A DNA stretch of 64,000 nt, taken from assembly GCA_963814375.1 (NCBI GenBank), contig CAWFCQ010000005.1, positions 224,001-288,000 on the forward strand, read 5' to 3'. This stretch comes from an uncultured Chloroflexia bacterium (GTDB lineage: Bacteria; Chloroflexota; Limnocylindria; QHBO01). Of the stretch, positions 28,632-53,500 are shown one piece after another. Below the pieces are notes generated by a model, which saw only the letters and a program-made list of their open reading frames with translations, was not told where the DNA came from and did not search any database. The stretch's first letter is position 1. Each line of letters opens with the position of its first letter. The translations under genes were made by a program, and so were the position numbers.

Positions 28632-29242
28632 GAGAGTTCGTCCGTTCGTGCCTGCGCGATGAGCGCTCGGAGGAACCAGTCGACGTCCTCCGCAGCCTGA
28701 TCCGGCGAGACCCCGAGATGATCGCGCCACGTCCGCAGCGAGGACTGGGAGACGAGGACGACCAGGAAGCGCGCAATCCGGTCCTGGTCGGTGCCGGTAA
28801 GCGGCGGCTCGACCGACTCGACCAGCCGACGCATCCTGGCGAAGCGTGAGGGCATCGTGACGTGCCTGACCTCGCCGGCGATCGGGCTGGCAAACGCAGC
28901 GCGCTCCATGTCGTCCAAGGCGTCGAGGCGCTCGATGAATCCGCGGACCGCGCTCTTGACGTCGCCGACGCTTTCCGGATCCGGCACCCGATCGAAGCCC
29001 GCGCGCCGAGCCGCGTGCGGGTACATCTGCGCGAGGAGATCGGCCTTTGTTCCGAAGTGCCGATACACCGTCGGGACCGACACTCCCGCCTCGCGCGAGA
29101 CCGCCGGGATGGACAGGCTCGCGAGGCCCGTCGACATGACCCGCAGAGCCGCGTCGAGGATCCGGCTCCGGGTCTCCTCCGCGTGCTCGGCTCGCAGCGT
29201 ACTGCGATATGCACGTGTCTCGCTATTAGCGATACGACTCAT
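28628..29242 (-). CDS. TetR/AcrR family regulator
   Basis: TRSRILDAA...VSREAGVSVPTVYRHFGTK. Confidence 0.9.
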   Translation of the reverse strand: MSRIANSETRAYRSTLRAEHAEETRSRILDAALRVMSTGLASLSIPAVSREAGVSVPTVYRHFGTKADLLAQMYPHAARRAGFDRVPDPESVGDVKSAVRGFIERLDALDDMERAAFASPIAGEVRHVTMPSRFARMRRLVESVEPPLTGTDQDRIARFLVVLVSQSSLRTWRDHLGVSPDQAAEDVDWFLRALIAQARTDELS

Positions 29243-29485
29243 ATTGTGAATATATGACTCATGTCAAGCCTCGGTCCACATTGAGGGCATTCGGGCCCTG
29301 TGATAATCTCGGTGTGACGCGTTGACGCGGGAGCCAGTACGCGCAAAGACCTCGTTTTCGAGCGAGCCGGGACGGTGGAAGCCGGCAAACGAGGAGCGCG
29401 GAACTCGCCCGTCGAGCAGCCCGGTGACGAGCCGGGCCGGGTGGCGCCCGATATCCGCGCTGACGAGAGGACCGACCGAATCCGT

Positions 29486-29561
29486 GGGGTTGTAGCTCAG
29501 CTGGGAGAGCACCTGCATGGCATGCAGGGGGTCGGGGGTTCGAGTCCCCCCAGCTCCACCA
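29486..29561 (+). tRNA. tRNA-Ala (GGC), nested in the T-box leader
   Basis: 76-nt cloverleaf, CCTGC-AT-GGC-AT-GCAGG, G3:U70, GTTCGA, encoded ACCA. Confidence 0.97.
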
Positions 29562-29608
29562 CCCCATTGCGGGGAATGGCGGTCAAGCTCAGGTGGTACC
29601 GCGAAGCG

Positions 29609-29640
29609 CCCCTTCGTCCAGAGCGACGGAGGGGTTTGTC
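29609..29640 (+). terminator. T-box terminator / Shine-Dalgarno sequestrator hairpin
   Basis: CCCCTTCGTC-cagagc-GACGGAGGGG then TTTGTC; GGAGG lies 8 nt before an in-frame GTG. Confidence 0.75.
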
Positions 29641-30228
29641 GTGTCCGAGGATGAGAGCCCAGAACCGATGATCATGACCGGAGCCGGTGAAGCGAAGACG
29701 GCCCGCGATGGGCGCGGATGGACGCTGCGCCCCGCACGGCCGACCGACGGCCGCGCCCTGGCCCGCCTCTTCGCCGCCGTCCGGGACGAGGGCGAATGGC
29801 TTATCACTCCGCCGGGCGCGGTGAGCGAGCCCTCCGAGGCATTCTGGGTAGCCGAGATGATCCGTGCCGCCGAGCACCTGGTGCTGATCGCCGAGGCCGA
29901 TGCGGACGTGGTCGGCAACGTCTTGGTCAGCGTCGACCGCGGGGTCGCCACCGAGCACATCGGCGTGCTATCGATCACGATCGCCCACGACTGGCGCGAC
30001 GTCGGCATCGGCACCGAGCTCGTCGCGGCCGCGCAAGACTGGGCGACCAAGCGCCGCCTGCACAAGGTCTCGCTGGGCGTCTTCCCGGAGAACGTGCGCG
30101 CCATCGCGGTCTACGAGAAGCGTGGATTCGTGCGCGAGGGGCTCCGCCGCGACCAGTATCGGTCCGGCGAGCGCTTCCGCGACGAGGTGATGATGGCCTG
30201 GTTCCCTGACGAGGCGACGGACCGATGA
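29641..30228 (+). CDS. GNAT acetyltransferase, first gene of the T-box-controlled leuS operon
   Basis: WRDVGIGTEL, LGVFPENVRAIAVYEKRGFVREG; ATGA overlap with leuS. Confidence 0.88.
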   Translation: MSEDESPEPMIMTGAGEAKTARDGRGWTLRPARPTDGRALARLFAAVRDEGEWLITPPGAVSEPSEAFWVAEMIRAAEHLVLIAEADADVVGNVLVSVDRGVATEHIGVLSITIAHDWRDVGIGTELVAAAQDWATKRRLHKVSLGVFPENVRAIAVYEKRGFVREGLRRDQYRSGERFRDEVMMAWFPDEATDR

Positions 30229-32720
30229 CGACCGAGATGCCCTCCCGCACCCAGCGCCCGGACCGCTACGACCCGGCCGGCTTCGAGCAGGGATGGCGCG
30301 ATCGCTGGGAGGCGGACGAGCTGTACGCCGCCCGCGACGACGATCCGCGGCCGAAGCGCTACGACCTGACGATGTACCCGTATCCGTCGGGTGACCTGCA
30401 CATCGGCCATTGGTATGCCATGACCGGGCCGGACATCGTGGCCCGCATGCATCGGATGCAGGGCTTCAACGTCATGTTCCCGATGGGCTTCGACGGCTTC
30501 GGGCTGCCCGCCGAGAACGCGGCCATCGACCGCGGCATCCATCCGGCGACGTGGACCTACGAGAACATCAACACGATGCGCCGCCAGATGCGGCTGATGG
30601 GCGCGTCGTTCGACTGGAGCCGCGAGGTCGTCACCTGCGACCCGAGCTACTACCGCTGGCAGCAGTGGCTGTTCCTGAAGCTCTACTCCGCAGGGCTGGC
30701 GTACAAGGCGATGGGGACCGTCGACTGGTGCCCCAAGGACAAGGTCGTCCTGGCCCGTGAGCAGGTCGAGGGAACGGATCGGCGCTGCTGGCGGTGCGGC
30801 ACGCCGGTCGACAAGCGCGACCTCGAGCAGTGGTATTTCCGCATCACGAACTACAGCGACGAGCTGCTGAGCTTCGACGGGCTCGACTATCCCGAGCCGA
30901 TCAAGGCGATGCAGACGAACTGGATCGGCCGATCCGAGGGCGCCGAGATCGACTTCCCGACCGAGGCCGATGACGCCGAGCCGATCCGCGTCTTCACCAC
31001 CCGGCCGGACACCGTGTTCGGCGCCACCTTCATGGTCCTGGCGCCGGAGCACCCGCTGGTGGGCGTGCTGACCACCGACGACCGACGCGCCGATGTCGAC
31101 GCCTACGTCAGCGCTGCCCGGCGCGAGACCGAGATCGAGCGCATGAGCACCGAGCGCGAGAAGACCGGCGTGCCCATCGGCGCGCATGCCATCAACCCGA
31201 TGACGAGCGAGCGGATCCCGATCTGGATCGCCGACTACGTGCTGCCCGGGTACGGCACGGGCGCGATCATGGCCGTCCCCGCCCACGACGAGCGCGACTA
31301 CGAGTTCGCGAGGAAGTTCGACCTGCCGATCCGGTACGTGGTGGCGCCGGCCTCCGGCGAGCTGCCCACCGACAAGGCACTGGTGGAGCACTCCGCCGAC
31401 GAGGTGCTGGTCGACTCCGGAGAGTTCACCGGGATGCCGGCATTGGAGGCGATCGGCGCAATCACGCGTGCGCTCGAGGAGCGCGATCAGGGTCGCTTCG
31501 CGGTCACCTATCGCCAGCGAGACTGGGTCGCGGGCCGGCAGCGCTACTGGGGCGCACCGATCCCGATCATCTACTGCGACACCCACGGCGCCCAGCCGGT
31601 GCCGGAGGACCAGCTGCCCGTCGTGCTGCCGACCGACGTCGACTTCGCCCCCACCGGCGTGTCGCCGCTCCAGTCGCACGCGGAGTTCCTGAACGCGACG
31701 TGCCCGGTGTGCGGCGAGCCGTCGCGCCGCGAGACCGACACGATGGACACATTCGTCGACTCGTCCTGGTATTTCCTGCGCTACTGCTCGCCACACGACG
31801 AAACCGCTGCCTGGGACCGCGAGAAGGCCGACGCATGGATGCCGATTCACCTCTACGGCGGTGGAGCCGAGCACGCGGTCATGCACCTGCTCTACTTCCG
31901 CTTCTTCACCAAGGCGTTGCGCGACCTCGGCCTGCTCGGCTTCGACGAGCCGACGCTCAAGCTACGCAACCAGGGCCAGATCCTGGGGGCCGACCACAAT
32001 CGCATGAGCAAGTCGCGCGGCAATGTCCAGGCGCCCGACGAGCTGGTCGCCCGCTACGGTTCGGACACGGTCCGCGCGTTCCTCATGTTCATCGGCCCGT
32101 GGGACCAGGGCGGTCCGTGGAACCCCTCCGGGATCGAGGGCATCCACCGCTGGCTGGGGCGGGTGTGGGGGGCGGGCCAGCCGGTCGCCGCTGCTTCCGC
32201 GGCCGATGCCGAGGGCGCCGAGCTCCAGCGCGCACTGCGGCGCGCCACGCACACCACGATCGACGCGGTGACCGAGGACATCGAGGACTTCCGGTTCAAC
32301 ACCGCCATCAGCCGCCTGATGGAGCTGACCAACGCGATCATCCGCGAGCGCGAGGCGGGCATGGCCGGCACGGCCGCGCACACCGATGCGGTCGACACCC
32401 TCCTGCGGCTGCTGGCGCCGATCGCGCCGCACATCGCCGAGGAGCTGTGGGCGCGGCGGGGGAAGCCGTACTCCATCCATCAGCAGTCCTGGCCAGCGGC
32501 AGATCCGTCTCTCGCCGCTGCCGAGACGATCGAGCTGCCCGTCCAGGTCGATGGCAAGCTCCGCGACCGCCTGGTCGTGACGCCGGACACGCCGGCCGAC
32601 GAGATCGAGCGCATGGCGCTCGCGTCGGAGCACGTCCAGCGGTATCTGGATGGGCGCGCCCCGACGCGAGTCATCCATGTGCCCGGCAAGCTCGTCAACG
32701 TGGTGACGCCTCGGGACTAG
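30225..32720 (+). CDS. leuS: Leucine--tRNA ligase
   Basis: MYPYPSGDLHIGH, CP1 editing motifs (VFTTRPDT, GTGAIMAVPAHDERD), RQRYWG, RMSKS. Confidence 0.97.
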   Translation: MTTEMPSRTQRPDRYDPAGFEQGWRDRWEADELYAARDDDPRPKRYDLTMYPYPSGDLHIGHWYAMTGPDIVARMHRMQGFNVMFPMGFDGFGLPAENAAIDRGIHPATWTYENINTMRRQMRLMGASFDWSREVVTCDPSYYRWQQWLFLKLYSAGLAYKAMGTVDWCPKDKVVLAREQVEGTDRRCWRCGTPVDKRDLEQWYFRITNYSDELLSFDGLDYPEPIKAMQTNWIGRSEGAEIDFPTEADDAEPIRVFTTRPDTVFGATFMVLAPEHPLVGVLTTDDRRADVDAYVSAARRETEIERMSTEREKTGVPIGAHAINPMTSERIPIWIADYVLPGYGTGAIMAVPAHDERDYEFARKFDLPIRYVVAPASGELPTDKALVEHSADEVLVDSGEFTGMPALEAIGAITRALEERDQGRFAVTYRQRDWVAGRQRYWGAPIPIIYCDTHGAQPVPEDQLPVVLPTDVDFAPTGVSPLQSHAEFLNATCPVCGEPSRRETDTMDTFVDSSWYFLRYCSPHDETAAWDREKADAWMPIHLYGGGAEHAVMHLLYFRFFTKALRDLGLLGFDEPTLKLRNQGQILGADHNRMSKSRGNVQAPDELVARYGSDTVRAFLMFIGPWDQGGPWNPSGIEGIHRWLGRVWGAGQPVAAASAADAEGAELQRALRRATHTTIDAVTEDIEDFRFNTAISRLMELTNAIIREREAGMAGTAAHTDAVDTLLRLLAPIAPHIAEELWARRGKPYSIHQQSWPAADPSLAAAETIELPVQVDGKLRDRLVVTPDTPADEIERMALASEHVQRYLDGRAPTRVIHVPGKLVNVVTPRD

Positions 32721-50503: not shown

Positions 50504-53500
50504 TCAGGACAGGAGGAATTCCAGGTCGTCGCGGGTCAGGTTCTGGATCAGGCTGTTGTCGGCGTTGAGGATGGCGTCGGCCAGGTCGCGCTTGCTGCTG
50601 CTGGAGCTCGAGGATCTTCTCCTCGACCGTGTCGCGGCAGATCAGGCGGTAGGCGAAGACGTGCTGCGTCTGGCCGATGCGGTGCGCGCGGTCGATGGCC
50701 TGGGCCTCGACGGCGGGGTTCCACCAGGGGTCGAGCAGGAAGACGTACTCGGCGGCCGTCAGGTTCAGGCCGAGGCCGCCGGCCTTCAGGCTGATCAGGA
50801 AGAGCGGGCAGTCGGGGTCGTTCTGGAACCGCTCGACCCGCTCGGCGCGGTTGCGGGTCCGGCCGTCGAGGTATTCGTAGGTGAGCCCCTCGGCGTCGAG
50901 CCGGTCGCGGACGATCGCCAGGAAGCTGGTGAACTGCGAGAAGACCAGGACCTTGTGCCCCTCCTCGACGACCTCGGCCAGCTGCGGCAGGAGCATGTCG
51001 AGCTTGGCGCTGGGCTCGCCGACGCGGCTCGGGTCGATCAGGCCGGGGTGGCAGGCCGCCTGGCGCAGCCGCAGCAGCGCCTCGAGGACCTGGATCTTCG
51101 AGCGGTTCAGCTCGGCGGCGTCCTTGCGCGAGCAGCGCCTGGCGGTAGTGGTCGCGCAGCTCGTCGTAGAGCTTGCGCTGCGCCGGCTCCAGCTCGCAGT
51201 AGAGGGTCTGCTCGGTCTTCTCGGGCAGGTCCTTGGCGACCTGCTCCTTGGTCCGGCGGAGGATGAACGGCCGCAGCGGCCTTGGCCAGCAGCGTCGCGG
51301 GCCTCGTCGTCCGGCCGCCGAGCGCCGCCGGCGTGCCGCTTGAAGACCGAGGCCGGCGCCGAGCATGCCGGGGTTGAGGAACTCGAAGAGGGACCAGAGC
51401 TCGCCCAGGTGGTTCTCGATCGGCGTGCCGCTCAGCGCCAGGCGGTGCCGGCCCCGGAGCAGCCGGGCCGCCTTGGCCGCCTGGCTGTCGGCGTTCTTGA
51501 TCGCCTGCGCCTCGTCGAGGATCACGTAGTCGAACTCGAACTCGGCTCAGCTCGACGATGTCGCTGCGCAGCGTGCCGTAGGTCGTGAGGATCGAGGTCG
51601 TAGTCGTCGAAGTCGTCGCGCAGGGCGTGGCGGTCCGGGCCGGTGTAGTCGAGCACGCGCGAGCCGCGGGCGTGAACCGCGCGGCCTCCTGGTTCCAGTT
51701 GAAGACGAGCGAGCGCGGCACGACGACCAGCGACGGGCCCCTTGGCCTGCCGTCGCGCGCGGCGGCGCTGCAGCAGGGCCAGCACCTGGACCGTCTTGCC
51801 CAGGCCCATGTCGTCGGCCAGGCAGCCGCCGAAGCCGAACTTCTGGAGGAAGTCGAGCCAGCCCAGGCCCTCGCGCTGGTAGGGCCGCGAGCTCGCCGTG
51901 GAAGCCCGGCGGGCGCGTCGAGCGGCTCGACCCCCTCGAAGCGCGTGGAGCCGCTCGCGGACCTTGGTCGAACGCCGCGTCGACAGCGGACCTCGGGCTG
52001 CGCCGCCAGCAGGGCGTCGAGCAGGCCGGCCTGCGTCGCTGCCGAACCGGAGGTCGCCGTCCTCGGCGCGTGCCCAGCTCGGCCAGGATCCCGTACTTCT
52101 TGAGCCAGTCCTCGGGGAGCATCCCCATCGAGCCGTCGCCCAGGGCGACCATCGTCTCGCCCCGGCGCGGCGGCGGCCAGCAGGTCGGGCAGGCGGACGC
52201 TCCTGGCCGCCGAAGTCGACGCCGGCCGCCGAGCTCGAACCAGTCGATGCCGCGTGGTCACGGCGAGCTTGAACTCGCCGGCCGGGCGGATCAGCTTCCC
52301 CTCGGCCTCGACCCGCCAGCCGGCCCGACCAGGTCGCGCGGTCACCTGCGCCATCCGCTTCGGCGGGCAGCTCCAGCGTCCCCGGCTCGACGCGGAGGTC
52401 CTTCGCCTCGCGGAAGCCCAGCTCGAAGAGCAGGACGTCGGCCGCGGCCTCGGCCGCCGGCGTCGCGGCGGATGACCAGGCCGCAGCTCGGTCGAGACCG
52501 CCAGGCGGCCGTGGTCCGGCCCGCCGGGACGCAGCGCGCCGTCGTAGTCGAACTCGAGCTCGGCCAGGAGCCGGTCGGAGCCGGGCCCCAGTTCTGCCGC
52601 GGGGTCCGCAGGGTCAGGCAGGGCCGCGGCGCGGCGTCGATCTCCTCGAGCTTGAGCGTCTCGACCAGCTCCGACGGCGGCGACGCGGGCCTCGGCCAGG
52701 ATCCGGCCGAGCATGATGTCCTGCTGCGGGTCGGCGAAGACGATCTCCTTCTCGTGGCGGAGCCGGACGATCCAGGGCATCACCCCGGCGTCGTCGAACC
52801 GGGCGGCGCGGCCGACCCCCTGGATCAGCAGGCCGGGGACCAGGACCAGCGGCTCGGCCAGGTCCATCCGCGCCTCGCCCGCGGCGGAGCGAGCCGCGCC
52901 AGGCCCAGCGCTTGCCGCCGGGCTCGGGGCGGACGTCGAGCGCGAACCGCCAGGGCGGGCCGTCGTCCCAGCGGACCGTCGGCGGGTCCTCCTCGCCCTC
53001 GGTCCGGCGGAGCCGGAGCCGGCCGGTCCGCGCCGAGCCGCTCGACGACCGCCGCCTGCTCGTGCCGGAGCACGAACCGCCGCGTCCCCATCGCCTCGCC
53101 GCCATGCCGACCGCCCCCGAGCCGTTGACGTGGACGTTGACGTTGACCGCCGCCGCGGCGGGCGCCGCCGAGGCCGGCGGCGGCGGGCGATCGCCCTGGC
53201 CTCCTCGAGCAGCGCCAGGAGGTCGCGGTCCTCGGGGTCGTACCGGGCCAGCAACGGCGGCGGGCGCGTGCCACCAGGGCTTCAAGGGCCCCCAGTCGCC
53301 CCCGGGCCGGCGCTGGCGGCGGGCCAGGTCGATGACCACCTGGTTCTGGTCGAGCGTCGCCGGGACGTCGAGCACGTAGACCAGCAGGCGCTTCGCGTTC
53401 CGGGCCGCCGGCTTGGCCCGGGCCGGGTCGCGCCCCGCATGCGGCTGGGGCCTCCCCGGCGTCCGGCCCGGGGCCGGCCGATCCTTGGGGCGAGGCCGCG

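Follow-up and report, generated by a model that had tools for sequence, protein, structure and literature searches.

How can a riboswitch that senses one tRNA accommodate the complete gene of another tRNA, and what would such an RNA do for the cell? This question is raised by a leader upstream of the leucyl-tRNA synthetase gene leuS in a 64,000-nucleotide (nt) stretch of DNA from an uncultured Chloroflexia bacterium (contig CAWFCQ010000005.1, positions 224,001 to 288,000), which in its full length is referred to as the window and whose numbering is used throughout. Our analysis supports the view that the structure is a T-box riboswitch for leucine (specifier CUC) whose Stem III encloses a complete tRNA-Ala(GGC). 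Judging from the comparative evidence described below, it is very probable that one transcript contains both the T-box and the tRNA in functional form.

The enclosed tRNA is intact. ARAGORN and Rfam both identified a 76-nt tRNA-Ala(GGC) at 29486-29561, on the + strand like all other elements of the leader, and the Rfam tRNA model (RF00005) scored it with 62.5 bits at a gathering score of 29. The cloverleaf, the GGC anticodon, the G3:U70 pair, A73, and an encoded CCA end are all present, in line with an initial annotation of this DNA that had claimed an intact tRNA at this position. A permissive Rfam search of the leader additionally gave a weak overlap with RF01684, which we take to be mascRNA. 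Downstream of the tRNA, a 3′ trailer (29562-29577) includes a small hairpin of the sequence CCCC AUUG CGGGG. A sister copy on contig C2 of the same genome lacks about 12 nt of this trailer, and metatranscriptome contigs of relatives show a 12-nt deletion in the 3′ trailer region of the tRNA.

The T-box model of Rfam (RF00230) matches 29313-29624 end to end (model positions 1-219) with 38.6 bits and an E value of 3.9e-7, which applies to a permissive search of the 521 nt from 29200 to 29720. Stem I (29319-29417; model positions 1-103 correspond to 29313-29419) contains the K-turn, the AG bulge, the distal loop GGUGGAA, and a specifier loop in which the Leu codon CUC (29404-29406) is preceded by GAA and followed by the purine G. 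The Stem II hairpin and the Stem IIA/B region (29419-29462) are paired in the alignment, with one non-standard pair marked. The sequence GAGAG, which represents the RRRNG motif, and the Stem III 5′ arm GACCGAC are found at 29465-29476, and the Stem III 3′ arm GGCGGUC and the conserved AA at 29578-29586; these two motifs flanking Stem III are described in the TBDB paper (PMC7778990). The T-box sequence and the antiterminator follow at 29587-29624, with AGGUGGUACCGCG aligned to the model as the T-box sequence including the UGGN bulge, which is UGGU at 29594-29597. In the minimum free energy fold, 29608-29635 form an alternative hairpin of 10-11 bp that competes with the 3′ strand of the antiterminator and could be a terminator or a sequestrator. 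It is followed by UUGUCGUGU, and the tail after the hairpin is UUUGUCGUGU. All Stem I motifs that the initial annotation had listed (GCGUUGA/GAGC, AGUA, AGCGAG, GGUGGAA, and GAA-CUC) are present in the sequence, and its Stem II hairpin, UGGU, antiterminator, and mutually exclusive hairpin were recovered in the sequence as well as in the RF00230 alignment and the minimum free energy fold.

The only large departure from the T-box model is an insert of 101 nt in the loop of Stem III, for which the consensus has about 5 nt. This insert is composed of a 9-nt leader, the tRNA, and the 16-nt trailer. The location of the tRNA in the apical loop of Stem III, which had been proposed from the flanking sequences, is thus seen directly in the RF00230 alignment, and the conservation of the arrangement in several phyla as well as the covariation of the enclosing helix strengthen it further. 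Two flanking helices had been suggested, of which GACCG/CGGUC is indeed Stem III, whereas UCCGU/GCGGG belongs to a short copy-specific insert that is missing in the sister copy.

The genome also encodes the matching ligand, a tRNA-Leu(GAG) with an A73-CCA end that is present in two identical copies. Its GAG anticodon fits the CUC specifier, and its ACCA end is complementary to UGGU, which agrees with the earlier assignment of CUC and UGGU to tRNA-Leu. In six neighboring genes, CUC accounts for 117 of 288 Leu codons. The nested tRNA itself was considered as a cis ligand and ruled out, as its anticodon GGC mismatches CUC. The cis-ligand reading is also opposed by several leaders of a second family of the class (f2), in which the CCA that would have to pair with UGGU is incompletely encoded.

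Covariation of Stem III was analyzed with arms that were anchored on the RRRNG and AA motifs. Pair 1 is fixed as G-C by this anchor and was left unscored, and pairs 2-6 were scored. Anchoring succeeded for 118 of 137 leaders, which yielded 80 distinct arm pairs; the other 19 leaders were left out. Pairs 2-6 were standard in 83.3% of the cells, as compared with 56.2 ± 1.9% for shuffled partners (0 of 5000 shuffles reached the observed value; kinship among the leaders inflates this test and the permutation test below) and 32-37% for a shifted register. Four to six standard pair types occurred per position, with pair 2 being A-U in 40, G-C in 19, G-U in 8, U-G in 3, and U-A in 2 cases. In an alignment-free comparison of duplex energies, cognate flank/trailer combinations had a mean of −11.1 kcal/mol and non-cognate combinations a mean of −7.9 kcal/mol, and 0 of 5000 permutations were as low. 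The arm sequences themselves are varied (GACCGA, GAGAC, GGAUAGG, GGUAAG, GACAAA, GGCAGGG, and others), and this variety is what a maintained Stem III helix would predict.

Conservation of the arrangement was followed at increasing distance from the window. The leader was compared by BLAST with 40 relatives. In the same genus, 16 of 24 genomes gave matches from Stem I through the T-box with 81-88% identity, four more gave partial matches cut by contig ends, and the remaining four, which are 56-83% complete, gave only tRNA-type matches. ARAGORN detected tRNA-Ala(GGC) in 19 of 20 examined loci, the twentieth consisting of a contig end with Stem I alone. The full arrangement was also present in all five genomes from two other genera of the same family, and in f2, each of the six examined loci gave a T-box match over the full length (69.8-96.7 bits) that encloses tRNA-Ala(GGC).

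A tRNA-generic pattern, in which the T-loop word GGTTCRANTCC is followed after 25-55 nt by GGTGGTACCGCG, was then run against 185,579 species, each represented by one genome, and matched at least 119 loci. Among the matches listed, tRNA-Ala(GGC) was called by ARAGORN over the match in 112 of 119 and any other tRNA in none, and a LeuS homologue is encoded downstream on the same strand in 113 of 119. Four of the seven listed matches that had no tRNA call are cut by the locus edge (L056, L074, L081, and L155). L067 (Oribacterium sinus) was rejected because a T-loop-like word occurs there by chance in an ordinary T-box, and L102 lacks a tRNA. All 132 leaders with at least 200 nt of upstream sequence contained the motif R-A-(R)-CUC-R at a distance of 60-200 nt before the tRNA. 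Chloroflexota carriers among the matches listed belong to Limnocylindria, Chloroflexia, Thermomicrobiales, Sphaerobacter, Ktedonobacter, Anaerolineae, and Caldilineae, and Bacillota carriers to Syntrophomonadaceae, Peptococcaceae, and Thermacetogeniaceae; others are from Armatimonadota, Coprothermobacterota, Caldisericota, and Candidatus Fervidifonticultor. Three Bacillota isolates, Desulfofundulus thermosubterraneus DSM 16057, Thermosyntropha lipolytica DSM 11003, and Desulfitispora alkaliphila DSM 22410, are also carriers, and a few carrier bins bear the unchecked labels Proteobacteria, Bacteroidales, Methylocystaceae, Solirubrobacterales, and Acidiferrales. When 17 short loci were picked by size from diverse groups, 16 had a full-length Rfam T-box match spanning the tRNA (48-122.5 bits, six above the gathering score), and the seventeenth was cut upstream. 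In even samples, the strict pattern occurred in 30 of 401 Chloroflexota genomes from at least eight families, and the pattern with any base at the fourth UGGN position in 46 of 401 genomes of the phylum of Desulfofundulus, with no match of a reversed-pattern control in either 401-genome sample. These figures are lower bounds, as the strict pattern overlooked all five carrier genomes of the two other genera. The leuS leaders collected from relatives are both conserved and covarying, and as the arrangement recurs in more than 130 independent assemblies, chance is excluded.

Individual leaders vary around the common plan. The trailers of the tRNA span 14-99 nt, and the spacers on both sides of the tRNA differ widely in length as well as in sequence. 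Two loci have trailers of about 100 nt with extra hairpins between the tRNA and the Stem III 3′ arm (L035:1120-1371 and L036:1859-2111), and in a locus from Thermacetogeniaceae (L055), Stem I and the tRNA are set apart by about 110 additional nt. In some Chloroflexota (G080, C1:508816-509223; also L069), a second tRNA ends just before Stem I. In G080, this is a tRNA-Ala(CGC) 258 nt upstream of the nested tRNA, with the T-box sensor in the spacer between the two tRNAs. In a Syntrophomonas-like leader (G578:C1:41349-41404), GGUGGCACC with UGGC replaces UGGU after the nested tRNA, and this leader would no longer match a tRNA-Leu with A73.

Is the nested tRNA needed, and is it made from the same RNA as the T-box? 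Among the 61 tRNA genes of the genome, the nested one and its near-identical copy on contig C2 are the only genes for tRNA-Ala(GGC). As the nested gene type is thus the sole one for tRNA-Ala(GGC), the cell would have to mature this tRNA out of the leader. The codons that it reads, GCC and GCU, make up 229 of 462 Ala codons in the six neighboring genes. In eight further genomes, including three isolates, BLAST in combination with ARAGORN found the nested tRNA as the only tRNA-Ala(GGC).

A promoter-like element can be read directly upstream of Stem I at 29281-29307 on the + strand. It consists of TTGAGG (29281-29286), a 15-nt spacer, and the extended −10 sequence TGTGATAAT (29299-29307), and transcription would start at about 29313. 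The element ends 6 nt before the Rfam T-box match, and TTGAGG...TGTG(A/C)TAT occurs at the same place in the genus relatives. In Bacillota, a perfect 12/12 TTGACA-17-TATAAT promoter is found upstream of Stem I in 16 of 29 leaders and a promoter with at least 11/12 in 22 of 29. In the 165 nt before the tRNA of the same 29 leaders, the best promoter site averages 7.5/12 and never exceeds 9/12. For a synthetase gene, promoters so close to the consensus would be unusually strong; they rather resemble the promoters of stable RNAs and suit a tRNA gene. An independent promoter between Stem II and the tRNA, which would uncouple the two halves, was not found, and the consensus promoters of Bacillota lie upstream of Stem I.

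RNA data were available as assembled contigs from four metatranscriptome runs of two studies. A contig of 205 nt (X5 record 24) contains the tRNA with flanks of 65 and 58 nt, which read as Stem III arms and T-box of a relative. Another one (X3 record 17) covers 29482-29636, that is, the tRNA through the T-box and the hairpin, and continues beyond. X2 record 9 aligns to 29373-29421 in Stem I and to 29483-29619 in the tRNA and T-box, and X1 record 8 and X2 record 15 extend from about 29590 in the antiterminator into the downstream gene for a GNAT acetyltransferase. The tRNA is covered at a high summed depth, which pools many organisms. Where contigs end near the borders of the tRNA, the reason is probably a break in the assembly graph at sequence that many species have in common. 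In none of the four runs did a contig cover 29200-29310, a gap that carries no weight as a finding. These contigs are compatible with precursors and read-through transcripts. The earlier proposal that one transcript is both riboswitch and pre-tRNA is thereby supported indirectly, namely by the sole gene type, the lack of an internal promoter, and the bridging RNA contigs.

A further family, f3, shows what happens to the tRNA when the T-box is gone. The global-type pattern was absent from 23 of 23 f3 genomes. In three of five examined genomes (G026, G030, and G040), tRNA-Ala(GGC) is located 105-190 nt upstream of leuS, and Rfam detected no T-box around the f3 tRNA at an E value of 0.01 or better. 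This tRNA has its own −10-like element upstream and a GC-rich hairpin after it. Therefore, the linkage of the tRNA to leuS outlives the T-box, and a T-box that is not maintained disappears beyond recognition.

Taken together, we consider it probable that the leader is a working class-I Leu T-box attenuator that carries tRNA-Ala(GGC) as cargo in a permissive Stem III loop. This reading is the most economical one. The apical part of Stem III would have been replaced by a complete and functional tRNA-Ala(GGC) gene, and as the base of Stem III and the RRRNG and AA purines are intact, the discriminator core should fold normally, with the tRNA projecting from it. A single strong promoter just upstream of Stem I would produce the leader constitutively, so that every transcript, whether attenuated or read through, would contain pre-tRNA-Ala, from which RNase P and 3′ processing would release the only tRNA-Ala(GGC) of the cell. 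We infer that switching depends on uncharged tRNA-Leu(GAG), which would pair with the CUC specifier and, via its ACCA end, with the UGGU bulge. The antiterminator would thereby be stabilized over the 29608-29635 hairpin, and RNA polymerase would continue into the GNAT gene and leuS. This choice would fall once the antiterminator has emerged, some 100 nt beyond the tRNA. As the decision would be taken during transcription, cleavage would come after it, and processing would only later separate Stems I and II from the remainder. The proposal of the initial annotation that RNase P would detach the sensor from the switch is thus plausible.

Several points weigh against this reading and have to be considered together. 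At Rfam gathering thresholds, no T-box was reported in the window, as the score of 38.6 bits is below the RF00230 gathering score of 93, and the sister copy also remains below it with 51.4 bits. The low score goes along with the long insert and the GC-rich sequence, and seven relatives with the same insert score above the threshold (96.7-122.5 bits). A consensus promoter scan of the window listed none on the + strand, which is due to the 15-nt spacer of the TTGAGG element. A canonical terminator scan of 29150-29750 called none in the window because the U-tract after the hairpin is weak, and termination is therefore deduced from the f2 and Bacillota relatives, which have clear terminators with a hairpin and a U-run. 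The sole-copy search in the other genomes was a BLAST search with a 75-76 nt query that misses divergent tRNAs; it overlooked the nested copy of one genome (G027) and gave zero matches of any kind in another (G435). The metatranscriptome contigs cannot show a single transcript, its ends, or its strand, they could in part derive from DNA, and most of them stem from relatives. Among the 16 genus genomes, G006 represents unpublished data. Moreover, GGAGG in the 3′ arm of the hairpin allows translational or mixed control, and the constant tRNA-Ala(GGC) partner among the matches listed is left unexplained by a mere cargo role, which may thus miss a functional link.

The last point leads to the most serious alternative, in which the nesting is integral to the mechanism and tRNA processing, folding, or the extra transcription time of about 100 nt shapes the regulation. 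Processing could irreversibly uncouple the read-through mRNA from its sensor or create a stable 5′ end of the leuS mRNA, the freed Stem I-II fragment could still bind tRNA-Leu, or tRNA-Leu could gain more time for docking. The same tRNA occupies the same position in at least four named phyla, no other tRNA/T-box combination occurred among the at least 119 plus 46 pattern matches, and such positional fidelity exceeds what a permissive loop requires. The retention of the tRNA-leuS link in f3 after T-box loss points in the same direction. Processing of T-box leaders also affects the mRNA fate elsewhere, as in the case of B. subtilis thrS. The S. aureus met leader is reported to be another such case (PMC7913692). 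Yet, a single ancient vertical insertion that was kept for an essential tRNA would give the same pattern, and the widely differing spacers on either side of the tRNA (trailers of 14-99 nt) oppose a precise structural function. We therefore regard this alternative as rather unlikely, but as the cargo view does not account for the exclusive pairing of leuS with tRNA-Ala(GGC) and for the f3 linkage, processing may have a role in mRNA fate or sensor uncoupling. It is less probable still that the switch of this genus is translational or dual, with the 29608-29635 hairpin sequestering the ribosome-binding site as in actinobacterial ileS T-boxes. The GGAGG in the 3′ arm of the hairpin is positioned 8 nt before a GTG at 29641, and the lack of a called canonical U-tract terminator would also fit. 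However, the stretch from the hairpin to the conserved ATGATC (29668) varies in length and frame among the genus relatives, most of which have a separate GGAG 10-14 nt before the conserved ATG. In addition, Stem I is of full length, unlike in the short translational class, and the f2 and Bacillota relatives combine hairpin and U-run terminators with separate ribosome-binding sites.

It was in principle also conceivable that the T-box is a decaying relic, or that the two halves are never on one RNA, with the tRNA having its own promoter and leuS being independent of tRNA-Leu. The f3 genomes indicate that tRNA-Ala(GGC) can use its own −10-like element upstream of leuS in the absence of a T-box, and no + strand promoter was called in the window. 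Against this stand the conservation of the T-box elements across phyla, the covariation of Stem III, and the 29 Bacillota leaders, which have no internal site above 9/12 and perfect promoters upstream of Stem I. A relic would not persist so well, as T-box loss in f3 leaves nothing recognizable, and this explanation is very improbable. An assembly artifact or a chimeric join at the tRNA was a concern because the genome is a metagenome bin (2.52 Mb in 8 contigs, 89% complete, 4.5% contamination) with two copies of the region. This view is refuted and its residual likelihood negligible, as the same join is found in more than 130 independent assemblies that include isolate genomes and closed chromosomes; the mis-assembly at the tRNA that the initial annotation had considered did thus not materialize. 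Nor was any of the other observations made that the initial annotation had named as refuting its reading.

The gene directly downstream of the leader is the GNAT acetyltransferase gene (29668-30228, + strand; Pfam PF00583, E 1.7e-16), and leuS follows as the second gene at 30225-32720 (+ strand), encoding a leucyl-tRNA synthetase of 831 aa (Pfam PF13603, E 6.2e-65, PF00133, and PF08264). The downstream leuS had thus been correctly recognized, whereas the intervening GNAT gene, which overlaps leuS by 4 nt, had not been mentioned. The ATG start of the GNAT gene at 29668 is conserved in the genus (GATGATC in relatives), and the open reading frame listing places a GTG further upstream at 29593. 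Beyond leuS, there are comEA- and comEC-like genes, and a divergent TetR gene is located upstream of the leader. The order leader-GNAT-leuS is typical of the family of the window. In most other clades, leuS directly follows the leader, and in some, a different gene of about 1 kb lies between them (gaps of 0.6-2 kb).

The sister copy is part of a 26.7-kb stretch on contig C2 that is colinear with and 92-94% identical to window positions 15515-42254. On the − strand, it has the same layout of TetR, T-box with tRNA, and GNAT, with an insert of 89 nt; it keeps the Stem III arms GACCGA/UCGGUC and is devoid of the 12-nt hairpin after the tRNA. Many tRNAs are present twice in the bin (contigs C4 and C8). 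The duplicated 26.7 kb suggest either two related populations in the bin or a large duplication, and in both cases the copy offers a natural comparison with the leader of the window. In the other T-box of the genome (contig C4:50834-51030, 58.4 bits), Stem III is of the usual short kind and encloses no tRNA. This T-box, which is located upstream of a class-I synthetase gene (Ile/Val/Leu type), can serve as an in-genome comparator. Elsewhere in the window, ARAGORN called a 101-nt tRNA-like gene at 52821-52921 (− strand) with a four-base anticodon (ccgc) and no assigned amino acid, for which Rfam reported nothing at gathering thresholds.

Canonical class-I T-box leaders are those of B. subtilis tyrS and glyQS. 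The leader described here shares with the canonical class (RF00230) the full Stem I, Stem II, Stem IIA/B, the RRRNG-Stem III-AA arrangement, the UGGN antiterminator, the competing hairpin, and the downstream aminoacyl-tRNA synthetase gene. It differs in that the short Stem III loop, which has 5 nt in the Rfam consensus, is replaced by 101 nt with a tRNA of another specificity, and as Stem III encloses a complete tRNA gene, the leader is also a tRNA precursor. The operon thrU-tyrU-glyT-thrT-tufB of E. coli produces tRNAs and the mRNA of a translation factor from one promoter, with separation by RNase P and other nucleases. There, the tRNAs are arranged in tandem upstream, whereas the tRNA is here located between the sensor and the expression platform of a riboswitch. 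Cleavage also occurs in the T-box leader of B. subtilis thrS. For the met leader of S. aureus, a cut by RNase III is reported (PMC7913692). In both leaders, the cut follows the regulatory decision and may influence how stable the downstream mRNA is, as would be the case here. The difference is that the cuts are here predicted to be set by the embedded tRNA and that the excised piece is needed by the cell.

As a tRNA-like unit of a larger RNA, mascRNA is cut out of MALAT1. The GOLLD RNA has an embedded tRNA, as described in PMC12990946, and is the nearest precedent that we found. GOLLD and MALAT1 share with our leader a tRNA or tRNA-like unit inside a larger structured non-coding RNA; their host RNAs differ, and a ligand-sensing switch around the tRNA is not known from them. 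A lineage-specific insertion in an otherwise canonical T-box is also known from the staphylococcal glyS T-box, whose conserved extra element stem Sa is reported to lie in the antiterminator/terminator domain (PMC9177973) and is not a separate gene, whereas the insert in Stem III is a stand-alone RNA gene. No description of a tRNA gene inside a T-box was found in the accessible full-text literature, older T-box surveys and supplementary tables aside, and the accessible parts of the TBDB paper, the Wels 2008 survey, and a 2026 review contain no mention of it that we could find. The impression of the initial annotation that this nested architecture is undescribed agrees with this outcome, and the chance that it has already been noted somewhere in print appears small. 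As some of these leaders pass the Rfam threshold, T-box collections probably already include them without their having been noticed.

T-boxes count among the most thoroughly studied riboswitches. A complete gene for a different tRNA that is conserved between the sensor and the expression platform in Chloroflexota, Bacillota, and other phyla is absent from the accessible literature. Inserts of 90-180 nt of foreign structured RNA are tolerated at the apex of Stem III, and the leader would represent a natural case in which a constitutively made, seemingly "wasted" RNA has a second and essential product. The arrangement would show from which locus these organisms express their only tRNA-Ala(GGC) gene, and it raises the question of how the co-transcriptional decision is timed relative to RNase P cleavage. 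For annotation, T-box and tRNA features overlap, and long leaders can be filtered out or under-scored. As a design principle, an RNA cargo might be built into synthetic leaders that precede a regulated gene. Since some carriers are available in culture, these questions can be addressed directly by experiment. We tentatively consider it possible that the leader is an ancient composite RNA shared by several phyla in which tRNA processing is a built-in step of riboswitch action. If this were true, a read-through transcript would give rise to a mature tRNA, a Stem I-II fragment that binds tRNA-Leu, and a sensor-free leuS mRNA with a structured, processed 5′ end, and a tRNA and the synthetase for a different amino acid would be wired together via one promoter and one cleavage event.

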